64,000 nt of DNA, taken from NCBI GenBank assembly GCA_021787535.1, contig JAJYLR010000001.1, forward strand, positions 211,648 to 275,647. Reading direction: 5' to 3'. Made by a program: the position numbers and the translations under genes. The notes under the pieces are model-generated. The model saw nothing but the letters and a program-made list of their open reading frames with translations. It was not told where the DNA came from and did no database searches. Below, piece after piece: positions 3,842-61,203 of the stretch (the first letter of the stretch is position 1; every line of letters starts with the position of its first letter). Source of the DNA: a bacterium (lineage in GTDB: Bacteria; Patescibacteriota; CPR2; UBA1875; JAJYID01).

Positions 3842-3869
3842 TTGTCATCCTGAACTTGATTCAGGATCC
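3842..3869. repeat. Hairpin repeat, minus orientation (TGTCATCC-ctgaacttgattcagg-ATCC)
   Basis: Inverted-repeat motif of the GAATGACA family. Forms an inverted pair with the element at 3882-3912. Confidence 0.6.
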
Positions 3870-3881
3870 AGATTTATTTAT

Positions 3882-3912
3882 ATAGATTCCGGATCAAGTC
3901 CGGAATGACAAA
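3882..3912. repeat. Hairpin repeat, plus orientation (ATAGATTCC-ggatcaagtccgg-AATGACAAA)
   Basis: Matches copies at 31671, 32367, 43202 and 50788. Lies immediately upstream of the argS start. Confidence 0.65.
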
Positions 3913-3917
3913 AAATT

Positions 3918-5594
3918 ATGAACGATGAACTGAAAAAATCTATTTATGAAGCGGTAAAAGCTCAGCAAAAAAGTTGCGGGTGCAGTTTTGATATTCCTGA
4001 AATCGAAATCGAAAATCCGAAAGATCCGAAGTTTGGGGATTTATCGACTAATATTGCGATGAAGATAGGCAAGATGCAGGGAAAGAATCCGATGGCGATT
4101 GCCGAGAATTTGGTGAAAGGACTGGATTCCCGCCTTCGCGGGAATGACAAAAAAGGGGGCCAGAATGATAAATTGGGCGGAATGATCAAGAAAGTGGAAG
4201 CGGTGAAGCCGGGATTTATCAATTTTTATTTCAGCCTTGATTATTATCAGGGAAAAGTTAGGGAAATTTTATCAGCTGGTCGAAAATATGCCGATTTAAG
4301 TATTGGAAAAGGGCAGAAGGTGCAGGTTGAGTTTATTTCGGCAAATCCAACCGGACCGCTGACGCTGGCAAACGGGCGAGGAGGTTTTAGCGGTGATGTC
4401 CTTGCTAATGTTTTCAAAAAAGCCGGGTTTAAAACTGAACGGGAATATTATGTCAATGACGGCGGAAATCAGGTAAAGGTTCTCGGGGATTCTATTTTAG
4501 CCGCAGCAAAACTAGTTCCTAACAAAGAAGATAATTACCGTGGCGATTACATTGAGAAATGGGCAAAAGAACATTATGGTGAATGTGCAGAGCTAAAAGA
4601 TAATTCATTTGAACTTGGCAAGATTGCCGCAAAAGATATTTTAGAAACCTTAATTCAGCCGGTTATTGGGAAAATGGGAATCGAGTTTGACAGCTGGTTT
4701 AGTGAAAAAGAGATGACCGGACGGGGTGAGGTAGATGAGACAATTCAGTTTTTAAAAGATAATCATCTGACAAAGTCTGAAGACGATGCTCTTTGGATGA
4801 AGACCACTGAGTTTGGTGACGACAAAAATCGGGTTTTGGTAAAAAAAGACTGTGAAAAGACATATTTTGCAAATGATATTGCCTATCACTACGACAAATT
4901 CGCGAAAAGGAAATTCGACAAAGTGATTGACCTCTGGGGTGCCGACCATCACGGTTATGTCGGTCGGATGCAGGCGGCTGTTGAAGCGATGGGCTTTGCC
5001 GGAAAGCTGGATATAGTGATTTTCCAAATGGTTCGACTCATAAAGGATGGTAAGGAATACAAGATGTCCAAGCGAAAGGGTACTTATGTGACCATAGATG
5101 AATTATTTGATCTCATTGGCATCAAAGATGCCGCCGATGTCGTCCGTTTCTTCTTCATTTCTAAGGGATTTGACACGCATATGGACTTTGATCTTGATCT
5201 TGCCAAAGACACTTCCGAGAAAAACCCGGTTTATTATGTGAAATATGCATCAGCTAGAGTGAATGGTATTTTGCGCAATGCAAAAGAAGATTTCTCTGCA
5301 GTAAATCTGAAATTAATTAAAGAACCGGCGGAACTTGACCTAATTAAAAAACTGTCAGAGTTGCCGGAGCTGGTAGAGCAAGTCGCCACCGATAAAAAAT
5401 ATCCGGTGCACAAGTTTACCTATTACATTACGGAAGTTGCGGAGAAATTCCACAGGTTCTATCACGACTGCAGGGTGATTTCGGACGACGCGGAACTAAC
5501 CAAAGCCAGATTGGCGCTTGTTGCCGCCACAAAGAATGTCCTGGAAATAACGGGAGAAGACATTCTCGGTATTGACATGCCGGAGAGGATGTAA
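3918..5594 (+). CDS. argS: Arginine--tRNA ligase
   Basis: 558 aa. HHGYVGRMQAAVEAMG and KMSKRKGTYVTIDEL (KMSKS-type) motifs. GFINFYF N-terminal motif. Confidence 0.9.
   Translation: MNDELKKSIYEAVKAQQKSCGCSFDIPEIEIENPKDPKFGDLSTNIAMKIGKMQGKNPMAIAENLVKGLDSRLRGNDKKGGQNDKLGGMIKKVEAVKPGFINFYFSLDYYQGKVREILSAGRKYADLSIGKGQKVQVEFISANPTGPLTLANGRGGFSGDVLANVFKKAGFKTEREYYVNDGGNQVKVLGDSILAAAKLVPNKEDNYRGDYIEKWAKEHYGECAELKDNSFELGKIAAKDILETLIQPVIGKMGIEFDSWFSEKEMTGRGEVDETIQFLKDNHLTKSEDDALWMKTTEFGDDKNRVLVKKDCEKTYFANDIAYHYDKFAKRKFDKVIDLWGADHHGYVGRMQAAVEAMGFAGKLDIVIFQMVRLIKDGKEYKMSKRKGTYVTIDELFDLIGIKDAADVVRFFFISKGFDTHMDFDLDLAKDTSEKNPVYYVKYASARVNGILRNAKEDFSAVNLKLIKEPAELDLIKKLSELPELVEQVATDKKYPVHKFTYYITEVAEKFHRFYHDCRVISDDAELTKARLALVAATKNVLEITGEDILGIDMPERM
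4124..4155. repeat. Hairpin repeat inserted in frame within argS (GGATTCC-cgccttcgcgg-GAATGACAAA)
   Basis: Same motif as intergenic copies. Encodes DSRLRGNDKKG in the ArgS frame. Degenerate gccagaatgat and ggcggaatgat follow at about 4158-4190. Confidence 0.6.
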
Positions 5595-5630
5595 GATAAT
5601 TCAAAGTTCTTACATAATCATAAGGAGAAT

Positions 5631-6791
5631 ATGTCCTTCCAAAGAACAAAAAATATTAATCTATCTCCTATTAAACAAATTGAATTAAAGGCCTCTCAAA
5701 TACCAGATGTCATTTCTCTAGCACAAGGTATACCTTCTTTTGATACTCCTGAAGTCATTAAGAAAGCTGCTGTAAAAGCTTTGAGTCGAGGTGATGTGGC
5801 GAAGTACTCATTGACACTTGGTCTGCCTGACCTTAGAGAAACGGTTGAAGAGAAATTGGCAAAAGAGGGGATGCTGTATGATTTCCAAAGTGAAATATTA
5901 GTTACAGTTGGTTCAATTGAAGCAATCACCGCTTCGCTAATAAGTATGATTAGCAAGAATAAAGACGAAATACTGCTTTTTTCTCCTTGTTATACTTCTT
6001 ATCAGGAGGCAGTCAAGGTAGCTGGAGGAAAGCCGGTCTTTGTTAACTTGGATGAAGATCGAGATTGGCAGATCGATATTGATAACCTCAAGAAAAAAAT
6101 ATCTTCTAGGACAGCGGCTATTCTCTTTGCTAATCCAAATAACCCAACCGGCTCGGTTTTTCCAAAGAAAGATCTAATTGTTTTGGGAGATCTAGCGTTA
6201 AAACATGATTTCTTCATCATTCTCGATGAAGTATACAAGGATTTTATTTATGATAATCTTCACTTCTTCACTCTTGCCTCTATTTCAAAATTGAGAGAAA
6301 AGATTATAAGAACATTTAGCTTTTCAAAGGCCTACGCTATGACTGGTTGGCGTATAGGATTTTTACACTCCGATGAGGAAAACGTGAAAGAAATCGTCAA
6401 AGTTCATGATACAATGGTCACTTGCGCACCGGTAATTTCACAATATGCGGCAATTGGTGCCTTTGATTATGCAGAGAGAGAAATAGATGAATTTCGTAAA
6501 AAGTTCACATCCAGGCGAGAGCTTGCTTGCAGGCACTTAGATAAGTTATCTAATTTTTTCAGCTATCAAAAACCAAGCGGATCCTACTTTGTATTCCCTA
6601 AACTTTTAAATGAATCCGATTCTTGGAAGTTTACTCTGGACCTTTTGGAAAAAGCACATGTGGCGGTGGTTCCCGGTGTTGCCTTTAGTCCAAGCGGAGA
6701 AGGTTATATACGGATCAACTTTGGAAGAGAAGAAAAAGATATTACAGCAGCATTTAAAAGGATAGAAAAATATTTAAAAAACAAAAAATGA
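5631..6791 (+). CDS. Pyridoxal-phosphate-dependent class I/II aminotransferase (aspartate aminotransferase family)
   Basis: ANPNNPTGSVF and SFSKAYAMTGWRIGF (PLP-Lys region) motifs. RBS AAGGAGA. Confidence 0.8.
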   Translation: MSFQRTKNINLSPIKQIELKASQIPDVISLAQGIPSFDTPEVIKKAAVKALSRGDVAKYSLTLGLPDLRETVEEKLAKEGMLYDFQSEILVTVGSIEAITASLISMISKNKDEILLFSPCYTSYQEAVKVAGGKPVFVNLDEDRDWQIDIDNLKKKISSRTAAILFANPNNPTGSVFPKKDLIVLGDLALKHDFFIILDEVYKDFIYDNLHFFTLASISKLREKIIRTFSFSKAYAMTGWRIGFLHSDEENVKEIVKVHDTMVTCAPVISQYAAIGAFDYAEREIDEFRKKFTSRRELACRHLDKLSNFFSYQKPSGSYFVFPKLLNESDSWKFTLDLLEKAHVAVVPGVAFSPSGEGYIRINFGREEKDITAAFKRIEKYLKNKK

Positions 6792-10008: not shown

Positions 10009-13000
10009 ATGGAAGATTTGCTGAAGGGTTTGAATAAAGAGCAGAAGGAAGCCGTTACTCACGACAAGGGACCTCTCTTAATCGTGGCCGGAGCCGGGAC
10101 AGGGAAAACGACTGTTATCACTCGGCGGATCGCCTGGTTAATCGCGCAAAAGCTGGCGTTACCTTCTGAGATTCTAGCCCTCACTTTTACCGATAAAGCA
10201 GCCGGTGAGATGGAGGAGCGGGTCGACGAACTTGTGCCTTACGGATTCGTCGACACCTGGATATCCACTTTTCACGCTTTCGGCGATCGTATTTTGCGCG
10301 ATCATGCTCTTGATCTCGGACTGACGACCGATTTTCGGGTTTTGTCCAAGCCGGAGCAAGTGATTTTCATGCAAGACAATTTGGAAGCCTTTGATCTAAA
10401 ATATTTCTCGCCGCTTGGCAATCCGACCAAGCACATCGATGCGCTTCTCGGCCACTTCTCAAAGCTGAAAGATGAAATAATTTCACCGGCCGAGTATTTA
10501 GGGTTTGCCGATAAGAAATTAAAGTCGGCTCAGGATTCTGACGAAAAACTCGAAGCGGAGAAGACGTTAGAAATTGCCAGAGCTTACGAAAGGTATCAGG
10601 AGCTGATGGCGGAAGCCGGCAATCTCGACTTCGGCGACCAGATAAATATACTCATTCATTTATTGAAAACCCAGCCGGCGATCTTGAAAAAATACCAGAA
10701 GCAGTGCAAATACATCTTGGTCGATGAATTTCAGGACACAAACTACGCCCAGAACGAACTACTGAAGTTATTAGCCGGGGGAAAGGATTCTGGTCAAGCC
10801 AAAATGACCCACGCACCGCTTCAGGGTGCGGGGCAGGCACAGGGTGGCCACGGAAATATCACAGTGGTTGGTGATGATGACCAGTCGATTTACCGTTTCC
10901 GCGGCGCCGCCATTTCAAACATTTTGCAGTTCCCGAAAGATTACCCGAGATGCAAGCAAATAGTTCTAACGGAAAACTACCGTTCGACACAGGCGATTTT
11001 GGACAGCGCCTATAAATTAATAAAACACAACAATCCTGATCGTCTGGAAGTGAAGAATAATATTGTGAAGAAGCTGACTTCCAGGTTTGACGCCGACTCG
11101 GTTGAACCGATCCATTTGCATTCAGACACCCTGACTGCTGAGACGGACCGGGTGGCGAAAATGATCAAAGAATATTTCGACGAAGGCAGATATTCGTTCA
11201 AGGACTTCGCTATTCTCTCGCGGTCGCGCCGAAACGCGGAAGATTTCATTCACGCTCTAAACCATTACGGCATTCCTTATAAATTCTCAGGTTCTTCCGG
11301 CTTATATTCTAGAGCCGAAATCCGCTTGTTAATAAATTTCGCCAAGGTTTTAATTTCATCCGGTGACAATCTGGCCTTCTATCATTTAATTACATCAGAT
11401 GTTTATGGAATGAATGTGTCGGAGGCGGTGAAACTAAATGAAATCTCACAGAAAAACAAACGAAGTCTGAATGATGTGGCGAACGCAATTAACTTTTCAA
11501 AATCAAAATCTGACTGGATTCCCGCCTCCGCGGGAATGACAGACGAGGCAAGGGCAATTTTAGATAGGGCATTGAAGGATTTGAAAAATTTCCGCGAAGA
11601 ATCAAAGAAGCTGACCGCCGGACAGGTGATTTACATGTTTTTGAAAGAAACGGGGTATTTGTCAAAACTAGTGACGGAGTCCGAGAAGAGCGCGGAGGCG
11701 CAAGTGGCCATCCAGAATATCGCCAAGTTTTTTGAAAGAATCGGTGATTTTGAAAAAGTCTCGGAGGATAAAAGTATTGTGAACTTCGTCCGTCACTTGA
11801 AAGCTCTGATGGATGCCGGTGATGATCCGGCAATGGCCGAGGTCGATCCGGATCTTGAGGCGGTCAGTGTGCTTACGGTTCACTCGGCTAAAGGATTAGA
11901 GTTTCCGGTAGTGTTTGTGGTCTCGCTTGTCTCGGACAGCTTCCCGACTCGCAAACGCGCCGAACAGTTGCCGATTCCGGAGGAATTAATTAAAGAGTCT
12001 TTACCGGAGGGCGACTGGCACCTGCAAGAAGAGCGGCGGCTCTTCTACGTCGGCATGACCAGAGCCAAAGAAATTCTGTACCTAACGAGCGCCGAGGATT
12101 ATGGCGGAAAGAGGGCGCGCAAGGTTTCCCAGTTCGTTCTGGAGGCGATTGATAAGCCGGCTTCGGCGAAAGAAAAGGTGAAGCTTGATAAAGTTGAGGT
12201 GATCAAGAGGTTCAAAAAGCGCGATGAGATTGTAATTCCCAAGAAATTCTACGATGGCAAGGGACTCTTAACCCTAAATCCGCATCAGATAGATGACTAT
12301 CTGTCATGTCCGAAGAAGTTTGAATATATCCATATTCTGCGTGTGCCGATCATGACCCACCACTCGGTGGTCTATGGTTCGGCAATACATAAGGCGATTG
12401 AAGCGTATTTTGTAGCGAAAAAAGCCGGCAAAAAGGTCAGTTTGGATGATTTAATAGAAGTCTTTAGCGCAAATTGGCGAAGCGAGGGATTTATTACCCG
12501 CGAACACGAGGACAAAAGGTTTAATCAGGGGAAGAAATCGCTTGGTGAATTTTTCGCCAGAGAAGAAGGCAAGAAGCCGCCGGAGGAAGTGGAAGCGAAG
12601 TTTGAAATACCGCTAAAGGATCTCAATGTGAAAATTCGCGGCCGATTTGATGCAGTATATGTCAAATGTAAAACGGAAAATGTTAAATGTGAACAAACCG
12701 AAATCCGCGACTTTAAAACTTCAGAGGTTGAGAATCAAGAGCAAGCAGACAAAAAAGCCAAGACGAATAGGCAATTATCAGTTTACGCGCTGGCCAAGCA
12801 AACCGAAACAGGTATCATCCCGGAAGTGTCGCTTTATTTCGTCGATTCGGGGTTGGTTGGGAAGGTTCAAAAGAAAGAAAAAGATCTAGACAAGGTTCGC
12901 GGGGAAATTGAGAAAGTAGTCGAAGGGATTAAAAAGGAAAACTTCAAAGCTTCTCCCGGATTTGGTGAGTGTTCGCGCTGCGCCTACCGAGAGATTTGTC

Positions 13001-13020
13001 CGTTTACACTATCGAAATGA
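10009..13020 (+). CDS. UvrD/PcrA-family ATP-dependent DNA helicase fused to a C-terminal PD-(D/E)XK nuclease with a Cys cluster (AddA/AddB-Cas4-like)
   Basis: Walker A GAGTGKTTV, DEFQDTNYAQ, VVGDDDQSIYRFRGA. C-terminal RFDAVY...EIRDFKTS...QLSVYALA nuclease motifs plus CPKKF...CSRCAYREICP Fe-S-type cysteines. Confidence 0.85.
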   Translation: MEDLLKGLNKEQKEAVTHDKGPLLIVAGAGTGKTTVITRRIAWLIAQKLALPSEILALTFTDKAAGEMEERVDELVPYGFVDTWISTFHAFGDRILRDHALDLGLTTDFRVLSKPEQVIFMQDNLEAFDLKYFSPLGNPTKHIDALLGHFSKLKDEIISPAEYLGFADKKLKSAQDSDEKLEAEKTLEIARAYERYQELMAEAGNLDFGDQINILIHLLKTQPAILKKYQKQCKYILVDEFQDTNYAQNELLKLLAGGKDSGQAKMTHAPLQGAGQAQGGHGNITVVGDDDQSIYRFRGAAISNILQFPKDYPRCKQIVLTENYRSTQAILDSAYKLIKHNNPDRLEVKNNIVKKLTSRFDADSVEPIHLHSDTLTAETDRVAKMIKEYFDEGRYSFKDFAILSRSRRNAEDFIHALNHYGIPYKFSGSSGLYSRAEIRLLINFAKVLISSGDNLAFYHLITSDVYGMNVSEAVKLNEISQKNKRSLNDVANAINFSKSKSDWIPASAGMTDEARAILDRALKDLKNFREESKKLTAGQVIYMFLKETGYLSKLVTESEKSAEAQVAIQNIAKFFERIGDFEKVSEDKSIVNFVRHLKALMDAGDDPAMAEVDPDLEAVSVLTVHSAKGLEFPVVFVVSLVSDSFPTRKRAEQLPIPEELIKESLPEGDWHLQEERRLFYVGMTRAKEILYLTSAEDYGGKRARKVSQFVLEAIDKPASAKEKVKLDKVEVIKRFKKRDEIVIPKKFYDGKGLLTLNPHQIDDYLSCPKKFEYIHILRVPIMTHHSVVYGSAIHKAIEAYFVAKKAGKKVSLDDLIEVFSANWRSEGFITREHEDKRFNQGKKSLGEFFAREEGKKPPEEVEAKFEIPLKDLNVKIRGRFDAVYVKCKTENVKCEQTEIRDFKTSEVENQEQADKKAKTNRQLSVYALAKQTETGIIPEVSLYFVDSGLVGKVQKKEKDLDKVRGEIEKVVEGIKKENFKASPGFGECSRCAYREICPFTLSK
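10785..10833. repeat. Composite repeat in frame in the helicase gene (ggattctggtcaagccaaaatgac + ccacgcaccg..gtgcgggg hairpin)
   Basis: First half matches the 23271/30893/61144 family. Second half matches 32411-32437. Encodes DSGQAKMTHAPLQGAGQ just before the VVGDDDQ motif. Confidence 0.55.
11517..11546. repeat. Hairpin repeat in frame in the helicase gene (GGATTCC-cgcctccgcgg-GAATGACAGA)
   Basis: Near-identical to copies at 4124 and 61178. Encodes IPASAGMTD. Confidence 0.6.
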
Positions 13021-21965: not shown

Positions 21966-23658
21966 AAAAGTAATTCAAGAATCCATTGGCCGAAAAATAG
22001 TTTCAGATGAGGATTTTCTAACTTTAATTAAAGAAAATTTCAAAGGCAAGTCTGAGGCGAAGTTCCCCTCAAATATTGAAATAAGGAAGAAGTACCGGTG
22101 CATGGTTAATAGAGGGATAATACCGCCAAGTCCGGCGCTGGAAAAAATATTGGTTACCAAAAAGATGCGTTCTCTCTCCGGTGTGGCTGTTATCACGGTC
22201 TTGACCAAACCTTGGCCGTGTCCGGGCAAATGCCTGTATTGCCCGGTTCAGGAAAACGTGCCAAAGAGCTATCTTGCAAGCGAACCGGCAGTGATGAGAG
22301 CGATTTTGTGCGAGTACGATCCCTACAAACAGGTGAAAGCTCGGCTAGATTCACTGGCACTAGAAGGCCATCCGACTGACAAGATTGAACTCATTGTTAT
22401 CGGCGGGACATTTTCAGTGTTACCAAGAGATTATCAGGAAGAATACATAAAGTTATGCCTCGATGCATTGAACGGTACAAAAAGCAAAGATCTAAACAAG
22501 GCAAAAAGGGCAAATGAAACAGCCGAGCATCGTCTAGTCGGGCTGACACTCGAAACTCGGCCTGACTATATTACGAAAAAAGAAGTTGAGCGGATGAGAT
22601 ATCTTGGTACGACAAGAGTCGAGCTGGGTGTGCAGTCTGTTTTTGATGAAGTTCTAAAATTTAACAAACGTGGTGCGACTAATGAAGATACAATTTGTGC
22701 GACGCAACTTTTGAAGGATGCGGGACTAAAAATCTGCTACCATATGATGCCCGGACTGCCGGATTCGGATTTAAAAAAAGACCTGGAAATGTTTAAAGTT
22801 ATTTTTACTGATCCGAGATTTCAGCCGGATTACGTAAAGATTTATCCCTGTATGGTAACGAAGGGTTCAGAACTTTATGAGTTTTGGAAATCCGGAAAGT
22901 ATAGGCCTTACACCGACAAGGAATTAGAAAGTTTAATCTGCGAAATTAAAAAGACCGTGCCATATCAAGTGCGGATCATGCGGCTTATTCGCGATATCCC
23001 TTCCACAGATATTGAGGCAGGTTCAAAAGTGACAAATTTACGGCAAAACGTGCAAAAGAAATTACAATCAGAAGGGGTGAGGTGTAAATGTATCCGCTGT
23101 CGGGAAGCGGGATTATTAAAGAAAGATGAAAAAGTAAAAAGTAAAAATTTCTCCTTTGTCATCCCGAGCGACTTCGCGGAGCGACGAGTCGAGGGATCCC
23201 TTCCAGAAAATGATCAATTCCTAATCTCTAATGGCCAATCAATCTCCAATGATCAAAAATCAAGAAGAATGGATTCTGGGCAAGCCAGAATGACATTGTT
23301 GCGTGATGAGTATGAGGCGAGTGGCGGAAAGGAATTTTTTTTGAGTTACGAGACGGGGGATAGAAGTGTCCTGTCCGCTCTTTTACGCTTAAGATTACCC
23401 GGCGAAACGTATTTGCCGGAGTTAAAAGATGCGGCTCTAATCCGCGAAGTCCATACCTATGGCCAGCAGATCGAAATCGGCAAAAGGGGCGATACTCAGC
23501 ACAAAGGGTTGGGCAAAAAATTAATTACGAAAGCTGAGCAGTTGGCGTGCAAAAACGGTTACAAAAAAGCTGCCGTCATCTCCGGGGTCGGTGTCCGTGA
23601 TTATTACCGAAAACTTGGTTATGAACTTGATGGTGAGTATATGATCAAATTGTTATAA
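21946..23658 (+). CDS. elp3: Elp3-like tRNA uridine(34) carboxymethyl-modifying radical SAM / GNAT acetyltransferase
   Basis: Radical-SAM Cys cluster KPWPCPGKCLYCP. C-terminal GNAT region IREVHTYGQQIEIGKRGDTQHKGLGKKLITKAEQLA is typical of Elp3. The likely ATG at 21946 overlaps the upstream gene by 20 nt. The ORF-track start is 21883. Confidence 0.8.
   Translation, partial: KMDKLLEKVIQESIGRKIVSDEDFLTLIKENFKGKSEAKFPSNIEIRKKYRCMVNRGIIPPSPALEKILVTKKMRSLSGVAVITVLTKPWPCPGKCLYCPVQENVPKSYLASEPAVMRAILCEYDPYKQVKARLDSLALEGHPTDKIELIVIGGTFSVLPRDYQEEYIKLCLDALNGTKSKDLNKAKRANETAEHRLVGLTLETRPDYITKKEVERMRYLGTTRVELGVQSVFDEVLKFNKRGATNEDTICATQLLKDAGLKICYHMMPGLPDSDLKKDLEMFKVIFTDPRFQPDYVKIYPCMVTKGSELYEFWKSGKYRPYTDKELESLICEIKKTVPYQVRIMRLIRDIPSTDIEAGSKVTNLRQNVQKKLQSEGVRCKCIRCREAGLLKKDEKVKSKNFSFVIPSDFAERRVEGSLPENDQFLISNGQSISNDQKSRRMDSGQARMTLLRDEYEASGGKEFFLSYETGDRSVLSALLRLRLPGETYLPELKDAALIREVHTYGQQIEIGKRGDTQHKGLGKKLITKAEQLACKNGYKKAAVISGVGVRDYYRKLGYELDGEYMIKLL
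23155..23200. repeat. Hairpin repeat in frame within elp3, minus orientation (TGTCATCC-cgagcgacttcgcggagcgacgagtcgag-GGATCC)
   Basis: Flanking TGTCATCC/GGATCC as in the family at 3842 and 27068. Encodes FVIPSDFAERRVEGS in the linker between the radical-SAM and GNAT domains. Confidence 0.5.
23271..23298. repeat. Hairpin repeat in frame within elp3 (GGATTCTGG-gcaag-CCAGAATGACA)
   Basis: Matches copies at 30893, 61144 (reverse) and 10785. Encodes MDSGQARMTL. Confidence 0.55.
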
Positions 23659-27061: not shown

Positions 27062-27067
27062 AGTTTC

Positions 27068-27124
27068 TGTCATCCTGAACGTAGTGAAGGATCTAGAGAT
27101 TCTTCGTTTCACTCAGAATGACGG
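27068..27124. repeat. Inverted pair of hairpin repeats (TGTCATCCTGAAC...GGATC and GATTC...CAGAATGACG)
   Basis: Same architecture as the 3842/3882 and 50745/50788 pairs. Intergenic, just upstream of the MBL-fold gene. Confidence 0.55.
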
Positions 27125-27135
27125 GTTGTTGAGAA

Positions 27136-30834: not shown

Positions 30835-30892
30835 CTGCTTAAGCAACCGAGCCATAAGGTGAAGTTGAATTTGAGGCCGTGCTTAATTATTG

Positions 30893-30920
30893 ATTCTGGC
30901 CAAGCCAGAATGACGAGGAT
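30893..30920. repeat. Hairpin repeat (GATTCTGG-ccaag-CCAGAATGACG)
   Basis: Matches 23271 and 61144. A second palindrome ttcggatatccga follows at about 30930-30945. Confidence 0.55.
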
Positions 30921-31645: not shown

Positions 31646-31670
31646 TTAGAAATTCAAATTATAGATTCCC

Positions 31671-31703
31671 GTCTTCGCGGGAATGACAAAAGGTAATTAT
31701 CAA
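31671..31703. repeat. Hairpin repeat (ATAGATTCC-cgtcttcgcgg-GAATGACAAA)
   Basis: Intergenic copy of the family. Confidence 0.65.
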
Positions 31704-32273: not shown

Positions 32274-32366
32274 GAACAAACTTTATCATAGATGTTGCAA
32301 ATTCTACATAATTTCTTATTGTCGTGCTTTGCAAAAATGCTTATAATTGAATGTAGAAATTATTAT

Positions 32367-32437
32367 ATAGATTCCCGCCTGCGCGGGAATGACAAAGGAT
32401 GGCGGGAATGACCCACGCACCGTTAGATGTGCGGGGC
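32367..32437. repeat. Composite repeat: ATAGATTCC-cgcctgcgcgg-GAATGACAAAGG followed by ggcgggaatgac + ccacgcaccg-ttagat-gtgcgggg
   Basis: Two family members fused. The second half is shared with 10805-10833. Confidence 0.6.
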
Positions 32438-32456
32438 AAGCAAGGAGTAGGATTTT

Positions 32457-38199: not shown

Positions 38200-38592
38200 A
38201 TGATTCCAAACAATAATCAACCGCTCGAGAATGCTGAATCTCAACCAACTTCGGCAGACGGGGTGCGCGAAAAACAAAGAGCGGAAGCCGCAGAACCTAT
38301 CAAACCGTCGCCGGCTCCCCGCAGCCAAACACAAAATAACCAGCCGGCTGATCTAAGCGCCTTGCAACAGACATCGCCTCCAACTCAGCCGCTTCAGCAA
38401 CCGGCAAATAATAATACCCCTGCCCAGTCCGTCGGCATAGCCGGCAAGGGCAGCGAGCCGTACATCAAAGCGGCGGAAAATGTTATGGAGAAAGACAAGG
38501 ATGATCCTTATCAGGAAGAAGAAGACCATGAAGATGTGCAGATTCAGTACCTGAAGGATAGGTTTGGGAAAGAAATAAAGAGAGGAGAATGA
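38200..38592 (+). CDS. Pro/Gln-rich low-complexity (probably disordered) protein
   Basis: 130 aa with PSPAPRSQTQNNQPADLSALQQTSPPTQPLQQP and an acidic C-terminus. Confidence 0.4.
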   Translation: MIPNNNQPLENAESQPTSADGVREKQRAEAAEPIKPSPAPRSQTQNNQPADLSALQQTSPPTQPLQQPANNNTPAQSVGIAGKGSEPYIKAAENVMEKDKDDPYQEEEDHEDVQIQYLKDRFGKEIKRGE

Positions 38593-38602: not shown

Positions 38603-38633
38603 TTTGTCATTCCCGCGCAGGCGGGAATCCAGC
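38603..38633. repeat. Hairpin repeat, minus orientation (TGTCATTCC-cgcgcaggcgg-GAATCCAG)
   Basis: Reverse complement of the GGATTCC...GAATGACA family. Confidence 0.65.
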
Positions 38634-38871
38634 CAGTTGATATAATATTTTTCTACTTTTTTAGAAAAAGTAGAGCAAAAAGCGCGATTAGACGGTCTCT
38701 CAAAGGTTCAAATAAGACTCGTTCATCTTTGAAAAACCACAACTCCTTATCAGTCGGGGATAAACCCAAGTGGTCTTTCCAAAGTATCACTCGTCTTATT
38801 CTCATCTTTTCGATCCGTGATAGTCGCAAGAGAGATACCATAATCTCGAAAATGATTTATAAATAACAGAT

Positions 38872-42986: not shown

Positions 42987-43201
42987 ATTCAATTTAATAA
43001 AGATTTTCCTTGATTTTTCTTTGTTTTTGGCTTTAGTTTGTGCTAAAATAAATATAGTTGCGGAAGCAGCAAATTTTCAAAAAATCTCTCATTGACTCGG
43101 GGTGGTTGTAACTCATAAAAATACCTTGCTATAAGCAAAAAGAGGGATGTCCAAGGTTAGGATATTAGTTTAAGTTATGTTAATTTGAAAATTTGATTTT
43201 A

Positions 43202-45292
<2,091 letters not shown>

Positions 45293-45293: not shown

Positions 45294-45695
45294 ATGAATG
45301 AAACGGGTGATAAATTACATTCAAATGAAGTTGATAAAAAGGAAGCTTTAGCGATAGCAAAAACATTGCTTGTAACAACAGAAGGAAAAACAGTTCGGCT
45401 AATTGATGCGTGTGAGTACGTACTTCAATTGATAGAACAGAAAGATAAGCCCACTAAGAATGATCTTGAAGTTTTACATAAATTAGCAGAATTTATAGCA
45501 AATATTGTTGATAGAGGTAATAAAGTTGAATATCAAGATTTTAGGGAATATGCGAAGCTCGTAATGGATATAAAAAAAGGTGCAGGTATAGAAGTTGACC
45601 CAGACGAAGTTTATAAATTTACAGAAGTTAAAAAATTAGATGAATTATATGATAATTCTCCTAATACTGAACCAGTAATTAGGAATGAGGAATAA
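45294..45695 (+). CDS. Small acidic, AT-rich hypothetical protein inserted between gyrB and gyrA
   Basis: ATG 1 nt after the gyrB stop. Its 3' end supplies the RBS for gyrA. Strongly AT-biased codons relative to the flanking genes. Translation [17 protein letters not shown]... Confidence 0.5.
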
Positions 45696-45696
45696 A

Positions 45697-48492
45697 ATGG
45701 CGGACGAAGAAAGACAAGAAAATTTGAATAACATAGGCAAAATCGAACCTCGTGACATTAACGACGAGATGCAGGAGAGCTATCTTGACTATGCCATGAG
45801 CGTGATTGTGGCTCGGGCTCTGCCTGACGTGCGAGACGGGTTAAAGCCGGTACATCGCCGAATTTTGTATGCCATGGACAAGCTCGGGGTTCGCTCGACT
45901 GCCAGGTATAAGAAGTCGGCAAACATTGTCGGTGAAGTTTTGGGTAAATATCATCCTCATGGCGATACGGCTGTTTATGACAGTATGGTTAGAATGGCGC
46001 AGGAGTGGAGCACGAGATATTTGCTTGTTGACGGCCAGGGAAATTTCGGTTCCATGGATGGTGACTCTGCCGCCGCTTACCGATATACGGAAGCAAAGAT
46101 GACAAAGGTTTCAGAGGAGCTTTTGGCTGACATTGATAAAGATACGGTTGACTTTGTGCCCAACTACGACGGGTCGCAGAAAGAGCCGCAAGTGCTGCCG
46201 GCAAAGGTGCCAAATCTTCTTTTGAACGGTCAGATCGGCATTGCTGTCGGCATGGCTACCGCTATTCCGCCGCACAACTTGGCAGAGCTTGTCGGGGCAA
46301 CGGCCGAACTCATTGATAATCCGGAAGCTACGGTTGAGGATTTATTAAGGCATGTCAAAGGTCCTGACTTTCCGACAGGCGGCATTATTTATAACGCAGA
46401 AGAGATCAAAAATGCCTACGCTACCGGACGGGGCAAAATAGTCGTCAGAGCTGTGGCCGAAATTGAAGAAAAGAAAAAAGGCGGCTTTCGAATCGTGGTC
46501 ACGGAAGTTCCGTATATGGTAAATAAGGCCACATTAATTGAAAAAATCGCTTCACTTGTCAAAGAAAAGAAAATTATCGGTATCAGCGATCTTCGCGATG
46601 AGTCGGATCGTAAAGGTGTCCGGGTTGTTGTGGAACTCAAAAAAGACGCTCATCCAAATAAAATCTTGAACCAACTCTTCAAAATGACGCAGATGCAGTC
46701 GGCCTTTCATGTCAACATGATCGCGCTGATCGACGGTATCCAGCCGAGGGTTCTGACGCTCAAAAATGTATTGGAAGAGTTTATAAAACACAGATTTGAA
46801 GTTGTCACTCGCCGGACTGAGTTTGAGCTGGCCAAAGCAAAAGCACGCGCTCATATCCTTGAAGGACTTTTGATTGCCCTTAAAAATATCGATGCTGTTA
46901 TCGAAACGATTAAAAAATCCAAAGATAAAGAAGTCGCCAAAGTGAATTTGATGAAGAGGTTCAAGCTGACGGAAATTCAAGCCCAGGCAATTCTGGATAT
47001 GCGGCTGCAGACACTGGCCGGGCTCGAGCGCCAGAAAATCCAGGACGAGTACGACGAACTTCAAAAATTAATCGCAAAACTTGAAGACCTACTGGCCCAT
47101 CCGAAAAAGATTTACGCTGTCATTAAGGACGAGCTCGCTGAAATGAAGGAAAAATACGGTGATGAGAGAAGGACTAAAGTGATTGAAGCCGGTATCGGCG
47201 AGTTTTCAGACAAAGACCTGATACCAAACGATGAGATGATTGTGACTATGACCAAGGGCAACTATATCAAAAGAATTCCGGTCACTACTTATCGGGTGCA
47301 AAACCGAGGCGGTAAAGGCGTAGTTGGCATGAAAACCAAAGAGGAAGACATCGTAACCCACATGATTTATACGCAGAATCACGATAATATGCTTTTCTTT
47401 ACGAACAAAGGCCGAGTGCTTCAGACGCTTGTTTATGAACTTCCGGAAGCTTCAAGGATTGCCAAAGGCCAGCCGGTAGTTAATGTTCTCCAGCTTGCTC
47501 CCGAGGAAGTGGTGACGGCGATTATTAATGATCCGGAGAAGCAAACCGGCAAATACTTAATGATGGCGACGAAAAAGGGGACTATCAAAAAGACCCCTAT
47601 GGAAAACTTTGTCAATATCAGAAAGAGCGGAATCATAGCCATAAATCTCGATAAAAATGACGAACTTAAGTGGGTCGAAATGACTGACGGTGATAGCGAC
47701 ATTATTATGGCTACCAAAAACTCACTGGCTATCAGATTTAACGAGAAAGATGTGCGTCCGATGGGCCGGGCTGCCCGTGGTGTCCGCGGCATTAAGCTAA
47801 AAGGCGGTGATGAAGTGGTCGGTATGGATAAGATCGTACCGGGTGGAGAGCTTCTGGTTGTGATGGAAAATGGCTACGGAAAGCGGACCAAGCTTGAGCA
47901 ATTTACACCGCACAGGCGAGGCGGTATCGGTATCAAAGCCGGAGTGGTGACTAAGAAAACCGGCTCTACTGTTGATGTTCGAGTCATTTCAAATGACCAG
48001 GGCGATCTTGTCATTGTATCTTCTCATGGTGTGGTTATAAGGACTCCGCTTGCCAATATTTCAAAGATCGGCAGAGCTACCCAAGGGGTGAGAATTATGC
48101 GCATCGATGATGGAGACAAGGTAGCGTCTGTAGCATCTATTGTGTCCAAAGAAGACGAGGATAATAACGGACAGCAGCAGATCCCTCTGGATAATGCTCC
48201 ACAAGACAAACCAAAGAGAACTCTGACACAAAAGAAAATTGCCAAAAACAATTCTCAAAAATCTGCCAAAACTGTTGCTAAAAAATCGGCAACCAAAAAA
48301 TCAGCCACACAAAAAGCGATGTTCAAGAACTCTGCCAAACCAAAACCGGCAGTTAAAAAACCTGCAGCCAAGAAACAAAGTTCGGCGCCAAAAGGCCAGT
48401 CAGTTGCTTTCAAAAAGACTGCTGTGAAACCTGCAAAAAAGTCCAAAAAAGCACCGGCAGGTTTTAAGAGAATGCAGGTCAGAAAGAAATAG
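45697..48492 (+). CDS. gyrA: DNA gyrase subunit A with a C-terminal Lys/Ala-rich basic tail
   Basis: [28 protein letters not shown]-terminal beta-pinwheel repeats. Approximately 110 aa KK/KA tail at the C-terminus. An alternative in-frame ATG lies at 45685. Confidence 0.92.
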
Positions 48493-50703: not shown

Positions 50704-50712
50704 CTCAAAAAT

Positions 50713-50738: not shown

Positions 50739-50744
50739 AAACAT

Positions 50745-50770
50745 GGTCACTCTGAACCTGATTCAGAGTC
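50745..50770. repeat. Hairpin repeat variant, minus orientation (GGTCACTCTGAAC-ctgat-TCAGAGTC)
   Basis: Variant of the TGTCATCCTGAAC...TCAGGATC motif. Confidence 0.5.
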
Positions 50771-50787
50771 TATACAGATAGAATTTG

Positions 50788-50818
50788 GATGCCGGATCAA
50801 GTCCGGAATGACATAAAG
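50788..50818. repeat. Hairpin repeat (GATGCC-ggatcaagtccgg-AATGACATAA)
   Basis: Matches 3882 and 43202. Forms an inverted pair with 50745-50770. Confidence 0.6.
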
Positions 50819-51569: not shown

Positions 51570-51750
51570 TTACAAGCATTTGAATACAAAAAAGGAGGGG
51601 TAACAAATCTGGCAACAGATAAGTGTTGTTTTATGCGTTGAATTCAAAGCAAAAGAACTTTGAAAACTGAAAAGTAGAGAAAACAAAGTCACGTCAATTT
51701 GAACGAGTATCACAACTCAAATTATCAGGAAAGCTTGTCTTTCCACTTTT

Positions 51751-53282
<1,532 letters not shown>

Positions 53283-53535
53283 TAGGGAGATTACCGATTT
53301 ATCGGATTACTTCCAGGTCGAGTCCGTATTTATTACGGGCATGGACTGTGGCATTTTTCTCTACTTTCCAGATTTTCAAGGGTATAAAGAATTGATTTTC
53401 ATGCTAAAAACGGTTAAAATATTGTAGTGAAAAACCGTTTTTTGTTTTGTAAAATTTGAACATTGCCATTGATAATTTGTCTAGCATTCCTCTGCTACCA
53501 AACCAACAAGGATATTCGGATTTTGAATTTCATTT

Positions 53536-53613
53536 TGCGCGTGTAGCTCAGCTGGTTAGAGCGCCACACTGATAATGTGGAGGTCCCTGGTTCAAGTCCA
53601 GGCACGCGCACCA
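53536..53613 (+). tRNA. tRNA-Ile (anticodon GAT)
   Basis: Acceptor gcgcgtg/cacgcgc, anticodon stem ccaca/tgtgg with loop ctGATaa, T arm cctgg-ttcaagt-ccagg, CCA encoded. Confidence 0.85.
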
Positions 53614-53642
53614 TATCTAACATTTAAGATATAGGAGATGAG

Positions 53643-53882
53643 ATGGCATTATTACTAAGAATTGTCGTAAGTTTAGTGGTAATATTTATTGGAGTTGTTT
53701 TGCTTGCGAGGTCATATAAAGTTGTACATATGATCGGGACTAACAACTGGGCTGAACAGCATCTGGGATCGGGTGGAAGCTATACACTAGTAAAGCTCAT
53801 TGGTCTAGTATTTATCATTTTGGCTTTGCTGACAATGTTTGGTATCATTAAACCTTTTGACATAATATTTCCAAGCAAATAG
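53643..53882 (+). CDS. Small two-helix membrane protein encoded between tRNA-Ile and tRNA-Ala
   Basis: TAGGAGA RBS 6 nt upstream of the ATG. 79 aa with two hydrophobic helices. Confidence 0.5.
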   Translation: MALLLRIVVSLVVIFIGVVLLARSYKVVHMIGTNNWAEQHLGSGGSYTLVKLIGLVFIILALLTMFGIIKPFDIIFPSK

Positions 53883-53912
53883 AGACTAAAGTAATTTCAT
53901 TATTGAATTTAT

Positions 53913-53989
53913 GGGCCCGTAGCTCAGTTGGCTAGAGCGCCTCGTTTGCACCGAGGAGGTCGCAGGTTCGATTCCTGTCGGGTCCACCA
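53913..53989 (+). tRNA. tRNA-Ala (anticodon TGC)
   Basis: Acceptor gggcccg/cgggtcc with the G3:U70 alanine identity pair. Anticodon stem cctcg/cgagg with loop ttTGCac. CCA encoded. Confidence 0.85.
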
Positions 53990-54044
53990 AGTAATTATTT
54001 TATAAAAATGGCTTGATAGCCTTTTTTATATTAACTAAATTGAT

Positions 54045-55859
54045 ATGAATTTACGAAACGTAGCAATTATAGCTCACGTTGACCATGGCAAGACTACGCT
54101 TGTCGATGGTCTTTTAAAGCAGTCGAAAACCTTTCGCGAAAACGAGGCGGCTTTTTCTCAGGAGTTGATAATGGATTCAAACGATCAGGAGCGCGAACGC
54201 GGGATTACAATCCTCGCCAAAAACACAGCAGTCAAGTACGGCGACACAAAGATTAACATTATCGACACGCCGGGACACGCTGACTTTGGCGGAGAAGTTG
54301 AGAGAACTTTAAACATGGCAGACGGCGCTATCCTTGTCATTGACGCGCACGAAGGGCCGATGCCGCAAACCAAATTTGTTTTGAAAAAAGCGCTTGAGAT
54401 TGGTTTAAAGCCAATCGTGGTTATCAATAAAATAGACAAACAGAATGCTCAAATCGACAAGGTTATCAGTAAAACCCATGATCTTTTCCTGGATCTTGCC
54501 ACTGATGTCGATCAGCTTGAGTTTCCCATATATTATGCCATCGCCAGAGAAGGAAAAGCTTGGGAAAAGGCGCCTGGAAACATGGGCGAGAAAGCCGATC
54601 TGACTTGCATATTTGAGGCGATAGTAAATCACGTGCCGGCGCCGAAAGTTGAGGAAGGAACATTCCAAATACTCGTCACATCGCTTGAAAGCGACAGCTT
54701 CCAAGGTAAAAATGCTATCGGCAGGATAAAAAGAGGAAGCATTTCGCCCGGTAAAACCATTACATTAATCAAGAAAGACGGTACTACCGAGCAGGCCAGA
54801 GTCGATAAAGTTTATGTGGCCCAGGGCCTCAAAAAAATTGAAGTGTCCGAGGCGCCGGCCGGAGAAATCGTGGCTCTAACCGGGATCAAGAATGCCGGCA
54901 TCGGCGACACGCTGGCAGATAGTGACAATCCGGAAGCATTGCCAACTATTGAAATAGAAGAGCCGACGCTCAAAATGTCAGTTGCCGCCAACACTTCTCC
55001 TTTTGCCGGCAAGGAAGGCCAGTTTGTAACCGGGCGTCAAATTTTGGAGAGGATCAAAAAGGAACTAGAAACAAACGTTTCCTTAAAAATGGAAATGGGA
55101 AATGCCGGCGACTACATATTATCCGGACGCGGCGAACTGCATTTGTCGGTATTTATCGAGACGCTTAGGCGCGAAGGATATGAGCTTGAAGTAGGCAAAC
55201 CCCAGGTGATTACAAAAGAAATAGACGGTGTGAAATGCGAGCCAATGGAAGAACTGACTATTGACGTGGTAACCGAGCACGTCGGTGCGGTGACGGCAGA
55301 GATTGGCAGGCGAAAAGGCGTTCTTCTAAGCCAAGAGGAAAACTCGGACGGCACAACAAGATTGGTATTTGGAATATCTACTCGGGGAATTTTAGGTTTA
55401 AGGAATCAATTACTTACACTTTCCCGTGGAACAGCCATAATGAACTCAATTTTCACCAAGTTTCAGCCGGCCGGAGCCGCTATACCCAAGTTGCGAAACG
55501 GGGTACTTATTGCCAGCGAGTCGGGCAAAGCTGTGGCATATGGGCTAAACAATGCCCAAGGGAGAGGCATAGTTTTTATCAAACCTCAAACTCAGGTGTA
55601 TGAAGGTATGATAGTCGGGCTAAATTCCCGCGAGGGCGACTTGGAAATTAATGTGACCAAAGAAAAGAAGCTGACAAATGTGCGAGCATCAAGTTCTGAT
55701 GAAGCGCTGATCTTGACTCCGCCGACGATATTTACCCTTGAACAATCACTGGATTTCCTGGAGGATGATGAACTCCTTGAAGTAACTCCAAAGAACTTGA
55801 GGCTCCGTAAGAAAATCCTCAACAAAACCGCCAGAAAAAGATCGGGTATGAAAGTTTAG
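54045..55859 (+). CDS. typA: Translational GTPase TypA/BipA
   Basis: [33 protein letters not shown]-domain motifs. 604 aa with EF-G-like domain architecture. Confidence 0.9.
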
Positions 55860-57088: not shown

Positions 57089-57170
57089 CCTTTTGTATTT
57101 TTAAACTTTAGAATTGAAAATCGTTAAAATATACGATGTTTTTTATTCAGTAAAGAATAAGATTAAATGC

Positions 57171-57482
57171 ATGGCAAAGATAGATTTCAGCCGGGATAAC
57201 TATAATATGTGCCTTTGCGGAGGCTGTCCGGTGAACTTAAGTTCTAAATGTGTGAAGATTCAGGAAGAAACTTTAGCTCAAGATTTTGAACGAATTGAAA
57301 AGGAGGGCACAATGCCATCCTCAGACAATTTTCCTGGTGTTTACTGTTCCATAGGCAGATCGGCTTGCGGAGATTTAAATAATGAAAGGCGCTGTCTCTG
57401 TCCGGGTTGCGCCGTCTACCTTGAAAACGATCTTAAAAGTTTTAAGTATTGTTTGGAGGGTAGCTCTGAAGAGGTTGGATGA
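57171..57482 (+). CDS. Cys-rich protein (DUF2769-like CxCxxCP motifs), paralog 1
   Basis: YNMCLCGGCPV...RCLCPGCAVY. Start uncertain: ATG 57171, or TTG 57114 per the ORF track. Confidence 0.45.
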   Translation: MAKIDFSRDNYNMCLCGGCPVNLSSKCVKIQEETLAQDFERIEKEGTMPSSDNFPGVYCSIGRSACGDLNNERRCLCPGCAVYLENDLKSFKYCLEGSSEEVG

Positions 57483-57871
57483 TGAAAGAAGTTGAACTTA
57501 ATCTAAATAATTATTCAAAATGCATTTGCCCGGAATGTCCTGTGCAGGGAGAAAGCAAATGTGTTTTTGCCAAGAGGGAGAACTGGGCTCGCGAAAGAAA
57601 AGCAGCCGGCAGAATATTAAAAGGATTTCCCGACCATCCGGAGGAATACGATATGGACATGGCCGAGGTCGAAAAAAGTGATTTTGGGAAAAAACAGGGT
57701 TTTCGAAAGCCGCAACCTCAAGAGATGATCGAGTTATATTGTTCTAAGCAAGTTGGTCGATCAAATTGCGCTGACCTTCAAAAAGGTGAAAGCTGCCAGT
57801 GCCCGACTTGCTCTGTTTGGGGATCACACGACTTGAATGACTACTACTTTTGTCTAAAGGATTATCAATGA
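57479..57871 (+). CDS. Cys-rich protein (DUF2769-like), paralog 2
   Basis: [11 protein letters not shown]...[10 protein letters not shown]. Same motif layout as the upstream gene. ATGA overlap with it. Confidence 0.5.
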
Positions 57872-60591: not shown

Positions 60592-60611
60592 TTCCTCGGA
60601 TGTCTGCTTAT

Positions 60612-60645
60612 GGGCGCTCCAAAGACGATCGGAGCGCCCTTTTCC
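60612..60645. terminator. Bidirectional rho-independent terminator
   Basis: gggcgctcc-aaagacgatc-ggagcgccc followed by TTTTCC. Lies between convergent genes. Confidence 0.7.
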
Positions 60646-60658
60646 TATTCAGTTAGAT

Positions 60659-61006
60659 TTAGAAATAACCTTGGCAGCAATTTGCCGATTTTTCGAGGCA
60701 AGGGCAACCCATCTGATTAAGCGCATAAATGCCGCTTTCAAGGTTTAAGACATTTTTGCCGACGTCGGACAGAAGCTTGGCGATGTGAGAGCTGCGGGCG
60801 CCACTTTTGCAAAGGAGAACAACTTTTTTGTTCCAAGCTATGTCATTCATTTTCAATGGAATGACCGACATAGGAATATTTTTCGAATCCTTAATTCTGA
60901 TTAAGGCATATTCGTCCGGCTCGCGGACATCAACAATTTCCAGTTCTTCTGGATTTGAATCGAATAATTCCTTAAATTCATTTGAGTTAATATTTGTAAC
61001 AGCCAT
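60659..61006 (-). CDS. Rhodanese-domain sulfurtransferase with a Cys-rich tail
   Basis: Active-site loop LLCKSGARSSHIA. Single-domain rhodanese. C-terminal CPCLEKSANCCQGYF. Confidence 0.7.
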   Translation of the reverse strand: MAVTNINSNEFKELFDSNPEELEIVDVREPDEYALIRIKDSKNIPMSVIPLKMNDIAWNKKVVLLCKSGARSSHIAKLLSDVGKNVLNLESGIYALNQMGCPCLEKSANCCQGYF

Positions 61007-61093
61007 AGAGAGTATTTAACCAAAGATTCATGTTCAAGTCCAGCATAAAGATCTAAATTACGCGCATTTTTAGAGAATGGCGTTTTCCATCCT

Positions 61094-61120
61094 TTGTCAT
61101 TCTGAATTTAATTCCCCTGA
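61094..61120. repeat. Degenerate hairpin repeat, minus orientation (TGTCATTCTGAAT...)
   Basis: Variant of the TGTCATCCTGAAC motif. Confidence 0.4.
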
Positions 61121-61143
61121 ATTACGAAATACATTCTTTCTGC

Positions 61144-61167
61144 GTCATTCTGGCTTGGCCAGAATCA
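61144..61167. repeat. Hairpin repeat, minus orientation (CGTCATTCTGG-cttgg-CCAGAATC)
   Basis: Reverse complement of the 30893 copy. Confidence 0.55.
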
Positions 61168-61177
61168 AAGATTGGCT

Positions 61178-61203
61178 GGATTCCCGCCTTCGCGGGAATG
61201 ACA
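61178..61203. repeat. Hairpin repeat (GGATTCC-cgccttcgcgg-GAATGACAAA)
   Basis: Identical core to the in-frame copy at 4124. Confidence 0.65.

Follow-up and report, generated by a model that had tools for sequence, protein, structure and literature searches.

What are the short hairpins that recur along a 64,000-nucleotide stretch of a Patescibacteriota genome (contig JAJYLR010000001.1, positions 211,648 to 275,647, hereafter the window), and with which enzyme do they belong? A sequence-only reading of this window had listed about 20 copies of an imperfect palindrome and compared them with REP or MITE elements and with Rickettsia palindromic elements (RPE). Our analysis indicates that these repeats are very probably members of the CGTC-tagged superfamily of repetitive extragenic palindromic (REP) sequences, the group of dRS3, the Neisseria Transformation Sequence (NTS) and the "Ssn-related motifs" (SRM), and that a cognate Ssn-type nuclease would act on them. 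The family has been described before and spans many phyla, so that it is not specific to the source genome; the protein partner documented for it is Ssn, a small GIY-YIG nuclease of single-stranded DNA (ssDNA), not an enzyme of the RAYT/IS200 type. What is new is the host phylum, the high share of intragenic copies (5/19) and the evidence that one subfamily has taken the place of another at given sites, translated dimer cassettes included.

All counts and positions given below refer to the 64-kb window, and strands are those of the tag (NTS) strand. A covariance model, R1, was built from 28 units, taken in one orientation from the window and from the syntenic loci of four relatives (alignment A5). 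With filters off, R1 recovered 15 strong window copies at E ≤ 7e-5 (starting at 3841, 3880, 4120, 10781, 11512, 23267, 30887, 31659, 32365, 38603, 43200, 50743, 50783, 61141 and 61174) and three degenerate, weaker ones at 27066 (E 0.03), 61093 (E 0.13) and 27093 (E 1.7), which together with a long-loop variant at 23155 make 19 copies. Repeat-related sequence lies at all 20 coordinates of the sequence-only reading, with two entries corrected: 23155 is a long-loop variant, and 32411 holds, in place of a whole unit, a half copy fused to another hairpin. A strict pattern (ATYC-stem, loop of 3-7 nt, stem-GRAT, then GA, with at most one mismatch) matched 12 times, against a mean of 0.6 and a maximum of 4 in 100 dinucleotide-preserving shuffles. 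Most window copies are perfect 8-bp palindromes, and folding of the hairpins as ssDNA gave energies from -6.4 to -8.9 kcal/mol (z from -2.1 to -4.6). These results confirm that the hairpin repeats are real and above chance. Nor are they an assembly artefact or confined to the window, since independent assemblies of relatives, from JGI and NCBI, have the units at orthologous positions, and more than a dozen phyla are represented among the matches listed. The tag strand is the minus strand in 12 of the 19 copies and in seven of the eight singletons; avoidance of an exposed strand was considered as an explanation of this suggestive bias and set aside, since gene direction is confounded with it and the copies are too few.

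Along the tag strand, each unit opens with (T/C)GTC, followed by AT plus six stem bases, a loop of 3-5 nt and the return stem, and ends with a C(C/T)A tail. Four subfamilies are told apart by their stems:

Subfamily A: 5' arm ATTCCCGC, loop N4, 3' arm GCGGGAAT.
Subfamily B: 5' arm ATTCCGGA, loop CTTGA, 3' arm TCCGGAAT.
Subfamily C: 5' arm ATTCTGG(C), loop of 3-5 nt, 3' arm (G)CCAGAAT; stems of 7-8 bp.
Subfamily D: 5' arm ATCCTGAA, loop CTTGA, 3' arm TTCAGGAT.

These stem subfamilies are discrete and co-varying, and all four are also present in relatives whose ArgS is 67-76% identical. In alignment A5 the TCAT ahead of the stem is invariant, as are the G and the AT at the stem end; the G preceding TCAT and the C immediately behind the palindrome hardly vary, the first tag base is T or C, and the tails read CCA(G), CTA(T/G) or CAA. 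Pairs 7-27 (A-U) and 8-26 (U-A) are invariant in 28/28 units, and across these units 96.9% of the cells in the 8-bp helix are paired, with two-sided changes at five of the eight pairs. The covariation score was 0.424 versus 0.169 in column shuffles, a value reached by none of 500 shuffles, and it collapsed when the 3' partner was slid by 1-3 columns. The stems therefore co-vary, the structure being kept while the sequence changes. Dimers are formed by units in opposite orientation, with the GTCAT tags pointing outward in every case, and are heterodimers (D+B or C+A, for example). No Rfam family covers the units, no tandem arrays like the Neisseria intergenic mosaic elements (NIME) were found in the window, and no T-run follows the stems, for which reason a role as intrinsic terminators was rejected.

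Subfamily A, TGTCATTCCCGCG(A/C)AGGCGGGAATCCAG, is the published 28-nt NTS, CGTCATTCCCGCGMAVGCGGGAATCYRG, with one mismatch (T for C at the first base). The NTS includes the long-known dRS3, and the SRM are the broader class defined in the same work (Chenal et al. 2025, Nat Commun, PMC11893778). Three window copies match the NTS with one mismatch and five match the SRM search pattern; subfamilies B-D have no match to that pattern and share the tag, the tail and the fold. SsnA is a small single-domain GIY-YIG protein that binds the motif only as ssDNA, with the tag strand single-stranded, and cuts a few nucleotides upstream of it; binding and cutting were shown experimentally in Neisseria and Wolbachia, and ssn genes are typically flanked by the motif across diverse bacteria (PMC11893778). 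The window repeats resemble the NTS/SRM-Ssn system in the 28-nt sequence (one base off), the oriented hairpin, the critical flanking nucleotides, the wide spread over phyla and the GIY-YIG genes that abut units in other genomes retrieved. The window differs in having no ssn gene in its 64 kb, a Patescibacteria host, four coexisting subfamilies and no NIME-like arrays.

CGTC-tagged REPs, in turn, are described as having a CGTC tag, often TGTC, an 8-9 bp stem that starts from AT, a 4-5 nt loop and a CCA tail, and as occurring mostly as dimers in opposite orientation, with heterodimers common (Di Nocera et al. 2013, BMC Genomics, PMC3733652). The window units agree with this definition in the tag, the 8-bp AT-first stem, the loop, the CCA-like tail and the dispersed copies with four dimers or clusters, so that the REP- or RPE-like behaviour proposed from the sequence alone is borne out. 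Compared with CGTC-1 to CGTC-4 by their described features, the window units are alike in the CGTC/TGTC tag, the 8-bp AT-first stems, the tail, the opposite heterodimers and the presence of copies in a helicase and a tRNA synthetase, UvrD/Rep helicases and tRNA synthetases being listed among the genes with intragenic CGTC copies (PMC3733652). The loop of subfamily A has 4 nt like that of CGTC-1 and those of B and D have 5 nt like those of CGTC-2 to -4, whereas subfamily C differs, with its 7-8 bp stems and 3-5 nt loops. CGTC-1 has been equated with dRS3, and the CGTC-1 and CGTC-4 of R. conorii with RPE-6 and RPE-4, respectively (PMC3733652). Like the RPE, above all RPE-4 and RPE-6, the window units are palindromes lying in frame in functional genes of a small-genome, host-dependent bacterium; however, RPE-1 and most other RPE are longer (100-150 bp), the hosts are unrelated, and the kinship rests on the statement in PMC3733652. 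Patescibacteria are absent from the main text of PMC11893778, of PMC3733652 and of a 2025 REP survey.

Genes occupy about 88% of the window, and 14 of the 19 copies are intergenic. The copies outside coding sequence are:

3841..3873, + strand: subfamily D unit, TGTC-ATCCTGAA-CTTGA-TTCAGGAT-CCA, lying between the divergent smpB and argS genes as the left half of a heterodimer (R1 39.1 bits, E 2e-8).
3880..3912, - strand: subfamily B unit, TGTC-ATTCCGGA-CTTGA-TCCGGAAT-CTA, right half of that dimer, ending 5 nt before the argS ATG; ssDNA fold -7.6 kcal/mol (R1 45.2 bits, E 4e-10).
27066-27098, + strand, and 27093-27125, - strand: degenerate dimer between the open reading frames (ORFs) 26582-27061 and 27136-27735 (E 0.03 and 1.7); the whole dimer, 27066..27125, folds as one long hairpin of -23 kcal/mol.
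30887..30917, - strand: subfamily C unit, intergenic (E 9e-8).
31659..31690, - strand: subfamily A unit between convergent genes, matching the SRM pattern (E 1.7e-8).
32365..32445, - strand: subfamily A unit (32365-32396) with a half copy and second hairpin module (32411-32445) (E 5.8e-9).
38603..38634, + strand: subfamily A unit, 10 nt past the stop of ORF 38200-38592, matching the SRM pattern (E 2.9e-9).
43200..43232, - strand: subfamily B unit with tag ATC, not GTC, ending 5 nt before the gyrB ATG (E 3e-8).
50743-50775, + strand, and 50783-50815, - strand: heterodimer of a D-like and a B unit (E 7e-5 and 3e-8).
61093-61113, + strand, 61141-61171, + strand, and 61174-61205, - strand: cluster of a truncated unit, a C unit and an A unit (E 0.13, 3e-7 and 2.7e-9).

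The head-to-head pairs 3841/3880, 27066/27093 and 50743/50783 and the triple cluster 61093/61141/61174 are thus as the sequence-only reading had described them, while its claim that copies frequently sit within 10 nt of a start codon was overstated: three intergenic copies end 5-10 nt ahead of one (argS at 3918, gyrB at 43238 and ORF 27136), and the other 11 do not. Some intergenic copies start 4-10 nt past a stop codon, and the rest lie 15-273 nt from the nearest ORF. The smpB/argS dimer is found, as the same dimer, at the orthologous place in locus L007 of a relative. Within this dimer, at 3858-3892, the D-unit loop, 3' arm and spacer combine into TTGATT-17 nt-TATATA immediately ahead of the B unit and argS; as a promoter this candidate was rejected, given that a consensus scan called none there and that matches in the region are at chance level. 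A TATAG precedes several, if not many, of the intergenic copies.

At 32411, a half copy, GCGGGAATGAC, runs into a hairpin of another kind, CCCACGCACC...GTGCGGGG, also found after the 10781 copy. This second module has the form CCCACGCACC-N7-9-G(G/A)TGCGGGGCA and is joined to the tag end of a unit or half unit. Its two window copies lie at 10805-10840 and 32411-32445, the former being translated within a helicase (THAPLQGAGQAQ), and it was not found in the other loci retrieved.

The remaining five of the 19 copies are parts of long ORFs and translated in open frame, in argS, in a PcrA-like helicase gene and in elp3:

4120..4151, - strand: subfamily A unit in argS that matches the NTS with one mismatch, peptide GLDSRLRGNDK (E 2.4e-9).
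10781..10811, - strand: degenerate subfamily C unit in the PcrA-like helicase, peptide GKDSGQAKMTH, followed by the second module at 10805-10840 (E 7e-6).
11512..11543, - strand: subfamily A unit in the PcrA-like helicase, peptide DWIPASAGMTD (E 2.8e-9).
23155..23297: dimer with spacer in elp3, made of the long-loop variant (23155-23203, + strand), a 63-nt spacer and a subfamily C unit (23267-23297, - strand, E 2.5e-8).

In none of the three genes do the inserts interrupt the reading frame or prevent alignment. In elp3 the two copies together make one complete dimer, and about 48-53 residues of the protein are repeat-encoded (FVIPSDFAERRVEGSLP...MDSGQARMT); the Elp3 profile matches in two stretches, the first of which ends just ahead of the insert. 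The long-loop variant at 23155 retains the TGTCAT tag and a GGGATCC tail, and its fold is no better than those of shuffled sequences. The spacer of this dimer (23204-23266, …NDQFLISNGQSISNDQKS…) resembles that of a dimer in the helicase gene of L007 (15010-15090, …NNQSPISNDQSNFNDK…), which suggests, from sequence likeness, that dimer and spacer, a composite of about 150 nt, can move as one cassette into different genes and species.

Two of these host genes deserve a remark of their own. The elp3 gene (21883-23658) encodes a bacterial homologue of Elp3, a radical SAM/GNAT tRNA-modification enzyme (TIGR01211, 577 bits), in a genome of the Candidate Phyla Radiation (CPR); translation probably begins at the ATG of residue 22, given that the listed ORF reaches 83 nt into the gene upstream and that the profile matches only from residue 33 onward. 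The helicase (10009-13020) is of the PcrA/UvrD type and carries a C-terminal PD-(D/E)XK, Cas4-like nuclease domain (TIGR00372, residues 849-998), a fusion kept in four of four relatives.

Comparison with relatives showed that the units are gained, lost and exchanged. In ArgS, the repeat-encoded segment falls in a variable stretch near residue 70 (ArgS alignment A1). At this site the window has a subfamily A unit, the proteins P0005 and P0004 have C-type units (DSGQARMT and DSGLGQND, respectively) and P0007 has another variant (DPGLVRMT), while the site is empty in P0002, P0003 and the WS5 protein P0006; the ArgS homologue named "candidate division WS5" is 71% identical to the window ArgS, and the ArgS homologues locate the source within Patescibacteria, near that division. 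Among the helicase orthologues (78-86% identity), units or whole dimers are present or absent at four sites or more, with inserts such as LSSRAQAEGSL...GFLHSPLHGVGRND and VIPTEAEESLS...VIPAQAGIS, all of which have the TGTCAT tag at the DNA level. The 10781 site is empty in L005 and holds other variants in L004 and L007, and the 11512 unit is present in L004 and absent from L005 and L007. The same codon position thus holds different subfamilies in different species. Because the stems never depart from a small set of discrete types, which unrelated phyla share, we infer replacement by copying from other units, through re-insertion or gene conversion, and not free drift in place.

Beyond these relatives, the A+B pattern, run against a viral collection, gave listed matches on contigs of 32-72% GC, with a 5' TG conserved that the pattern had not requested; matches over such a range show that the repeat is not clade-specific. 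Two of the IMG/VR contigs (L026 and L032) carry NTS arrays with a period of about 155-175 bp and up to 13 matches in 13.5 kb, which resemble Neisseria intergenic mosaic elements. The B/D pattern, in a genome collection, had at least 120 matches across many phyla and was likewise not clade-specific; the source genome is absent from the matches listed, and the groups among them include Sphingomonadaceae, Beta- and Gammaproteobacteria, Dehalococcoidia, Bacteroidota, Omnitrophota, Spirochaetota, Elusimicrobiota, Campylobacterota, Melainabacteria, Planctomycetota, Desulfobacterota and Firmicutes. At least 14 of the matches listed are Patescibacteria loci (Peribacteria, Nomurabacteria, Parcubacteria, Kazan and Saccharimonadales), in which the covariance model found several units in every 8 kb, the majority arranged as tag-outward dimers. 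In a Saccharimonadales locus (L242, 1776-3979), three tag-outward dimers occupy successive gaps of an apparent amino-acid biosynthesis operon.

Small GIY-YIG genes were found in five of about 240 unit-centred loci among the matches listed. Genes with PF01541 directly abut units in L168 (twice), L010 and L070, and Ssn-like genes are also present in the SRM-centred loci L127 and L156, in the latter about 1.6 kb from the unit. In L168, from Sphingopyxis, a CCGGA-CTTGA-TCCGG hairpin, with the stem and loop of subfamily B, lies on either side of the GIY-YIG gene. GIY-YIG genes abutting units reproduce the published association between Ssn and its motif. The small GIY-YIG proteins belong to PF01541 and have more than 8,000 relatives; the profile search matched mostly sphingomonad proteins.

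Several points weigh against the identification of the window repeats as Ssn substrates. Fourteen of the 15 strong R1 copies are training sequences and are partly matched by construction, 50743-50775 alone being an independent detection. No GIY-YIG/ssn gene was found in the window, by a regular expression, a jackhmmer profile (Lutibacter seed) run on all ORFs of at least 50 aa and Pfam/NCBIfam, or in about 80 kb of non-redundant loci from relatives, and hhalign of three unannotated ORFs beside or between repeats was also negative for Ssn; this absence is uninformative, because one small gene is expected per genome of about 1 Mb. The intragenic share, about a quarter of the window copies (5/19, in frame), sets them apart from the best-studied example, N. 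meningitidis, where 2% of NTS lie inside genes (PMC11893778). At two comparisons of empty and filled sites neither a target-site duplication nor clean, sharp boundaries were seen, and at individual sites an old insertion may have diverged in situ.

The lack of a nuclease or transposase gene in 64 kb of window and about 80 kb of non-redundant relatives' loci would also be expected if the units were relics, ancient immobile insertions without a partner enzyme, "going toward extinction" (PMC3733652), that are kept up only since mutations disrupting the hairpin are mildly deleterious or yet to accumulate. Degenerate copies do exist (10781, 27066, 27093, 61093 and 50743), and 19% of genomes with more than 200 SRMs have no Ssn homologue (PMC11893778). 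Most copies, however, are perfect 8-bp palindromes, and the sites of sister species differ in presence and in subfamily, always among the same discrete types, which argues for copying since the species diverged; we regard the relic explanation as improbable. A different agent of such copying would be that of classical REPs and REPINs, non-autonomous hairpins mobilised by a RAYT (an IS200/IS605-type Y1 transposase) encoded elsewhere in the genome. The window units share with GTAG REPs and REPINs the short oriented hairpin with a conserved unpaired tag, the inverted doublets, like those of REPINs and BIMEs, and the high dispersed copy number, whereas the tag of the latter is GTAG and their partner is the Y1 HUH transposase RAYT, while the window tag is (C/T)GTC. 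CGTC units flank no RAYT gene in any species (PMC3733652), and unit-centred loci carry abutting GIY-YIG genes instead. The sequence-only reading had seen no RAYT or transposase in the window, and Pfam/NCBIfam scans of ORFs of at least 100 aa and of several shorter ones agreed, finding neither a RAYT nor any other transposase and no Y1 domain; mobilisation by a RAYT appears very unlikely.

The units could instead act as RNA, as stem-loops in 5' untranslated regions or between cistrons that stabilise mRNA or tune translation and were spread by selection for that role. The copies that end shortly before the argS, gyrB and ORF 27136 starts, the several copies just past stop codons, the conserved position of the smpB/argS dimer in L007 and the argument that many REPs are transcribed (PMC3733652) are all consistent with this, but 5/19 copies lie within coding sequences, both orientations relative to transcription occur, there is no U-tract past the stem, so the units are not intrinsic terminators, and no Rfam family matches. 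Moreover, the conserved parts are unpaired flanks, identical across phyla, which speaks for a protein partner with sequence specificity; as RNA, the motif is not bound by SsnA (PMC11893778). As the explanation of the repeats, then, an RNA function has little to recommend it; such a role would be at most secondary and exapted, and is possible in that sense for the copies adjacent to start codons. Least credible of all is a DNA-uptake signal (of the DUS/USS kind), by which the competence machinery that CPR bacteria need would recognise self DNA. The motif is short, frequent and oriented, its copies in coding sequence use particular frames, as uptake signal sequences do, and CPR bacteria are generally thought to rely on imported DNA; yet a motif found in more than a dozen phyla, among the matches listed, is the opposite of a species-specific tag, and in N. 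meningitidis SsnA/NTS lowers transformation by NTS-bearing DNA, acting after uptake (PMC11893778).

Taking the window repeats as CGTC-tagged, Ssn-related elements, we propose that in the source genome the units, which are oriented DNA hairpins, would serve as substrates for a cognate Ssn-type nuclease and would spread, whether selfish or domesticated, both as single units and as tag-outward dimers carrying their spacer. A likely copying route would be the repair of nuclease-induced breaks with another copy as template, and this would account for the different discrete subfamilies found at one and the same site in sister species. Many copies have landed in coding sequence in this gene-dense CPR genome; the survivors are in open frame, apparently in variable, tolerant protein segments, and are translated into short peptides such as DSRLRGND, WIPASAGMT and DSGQARMT.

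The surrounding window has 42.5% G+C, a GC skew that is positive over its whole length and genes mostly on the + strand, and its housekeeping genes include smpB, argS, the helicase gene, elp3, pheT, purB, gyrB, gyrA, typA, 16S rRNA and tRNAs. Downstream of the 16S rRNA gene (51747-53281) come tRNA-Ile(GAT), tRNA-Ala(TGC) and, immediately afterwards, typA (54045-55859), with no 23S rRNA gene within 51747-55859; the rRNA operon thus appears to be split. GyrB (43238-45292, 684 aa) has about 45 residues beyond the 639-position gyrB profile, with subfamily-model matches in two stretches, and GyrA (45685-48492, 935 aa) extends more than 100 residues past an 800-position model; the covariance model found no units inside gyrB or gyrA. 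At 38872-41382 lies the gene of an 836-aa protein with weak matches to TraD/VirD4-type coupling proteins around residues 405-511, and at 57114-57871 are two adjacent paralogous small ORFs, both matching DUF2769.

No new kind of element is revealed by these repeats. They add the Candidate Phyla Radiation to the range of a repeat/nuclease system that was explained recently, at high density and with an unusually high in-frame share in essential genes (those of a tRNA synthetase, a repair helicase and Elp3), with turnover between sister species. Gene callers and aligners applied to CPR genomes should expect repeat-encoded inserts of 8-50 aa and spurious small ORFs made of units, and the units themselves are useful as markers for ssn genes and for recent genome dynamics in uncultured lineages. 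CPR bacteria, or Patescibacteria, are small-genome episymbionts thought to depend on imported DNA. A tentative suggestion, which we consider rather doubtful, is that a CPR Ssn/SRM pair may police incoming ssDNA and, through nuclease-triggered repair from other copies, keep rewriting intergenic regions and the surface loops of essential proteins, because different discrete subfamilies stand at the same codon position in sister species and dimer-spacer cassettes are translated. If this were true, the hairpins would be a continuing source of protein-length variation in the CPR and a self-marking device tied to a DNA-scavenging lifestyle.

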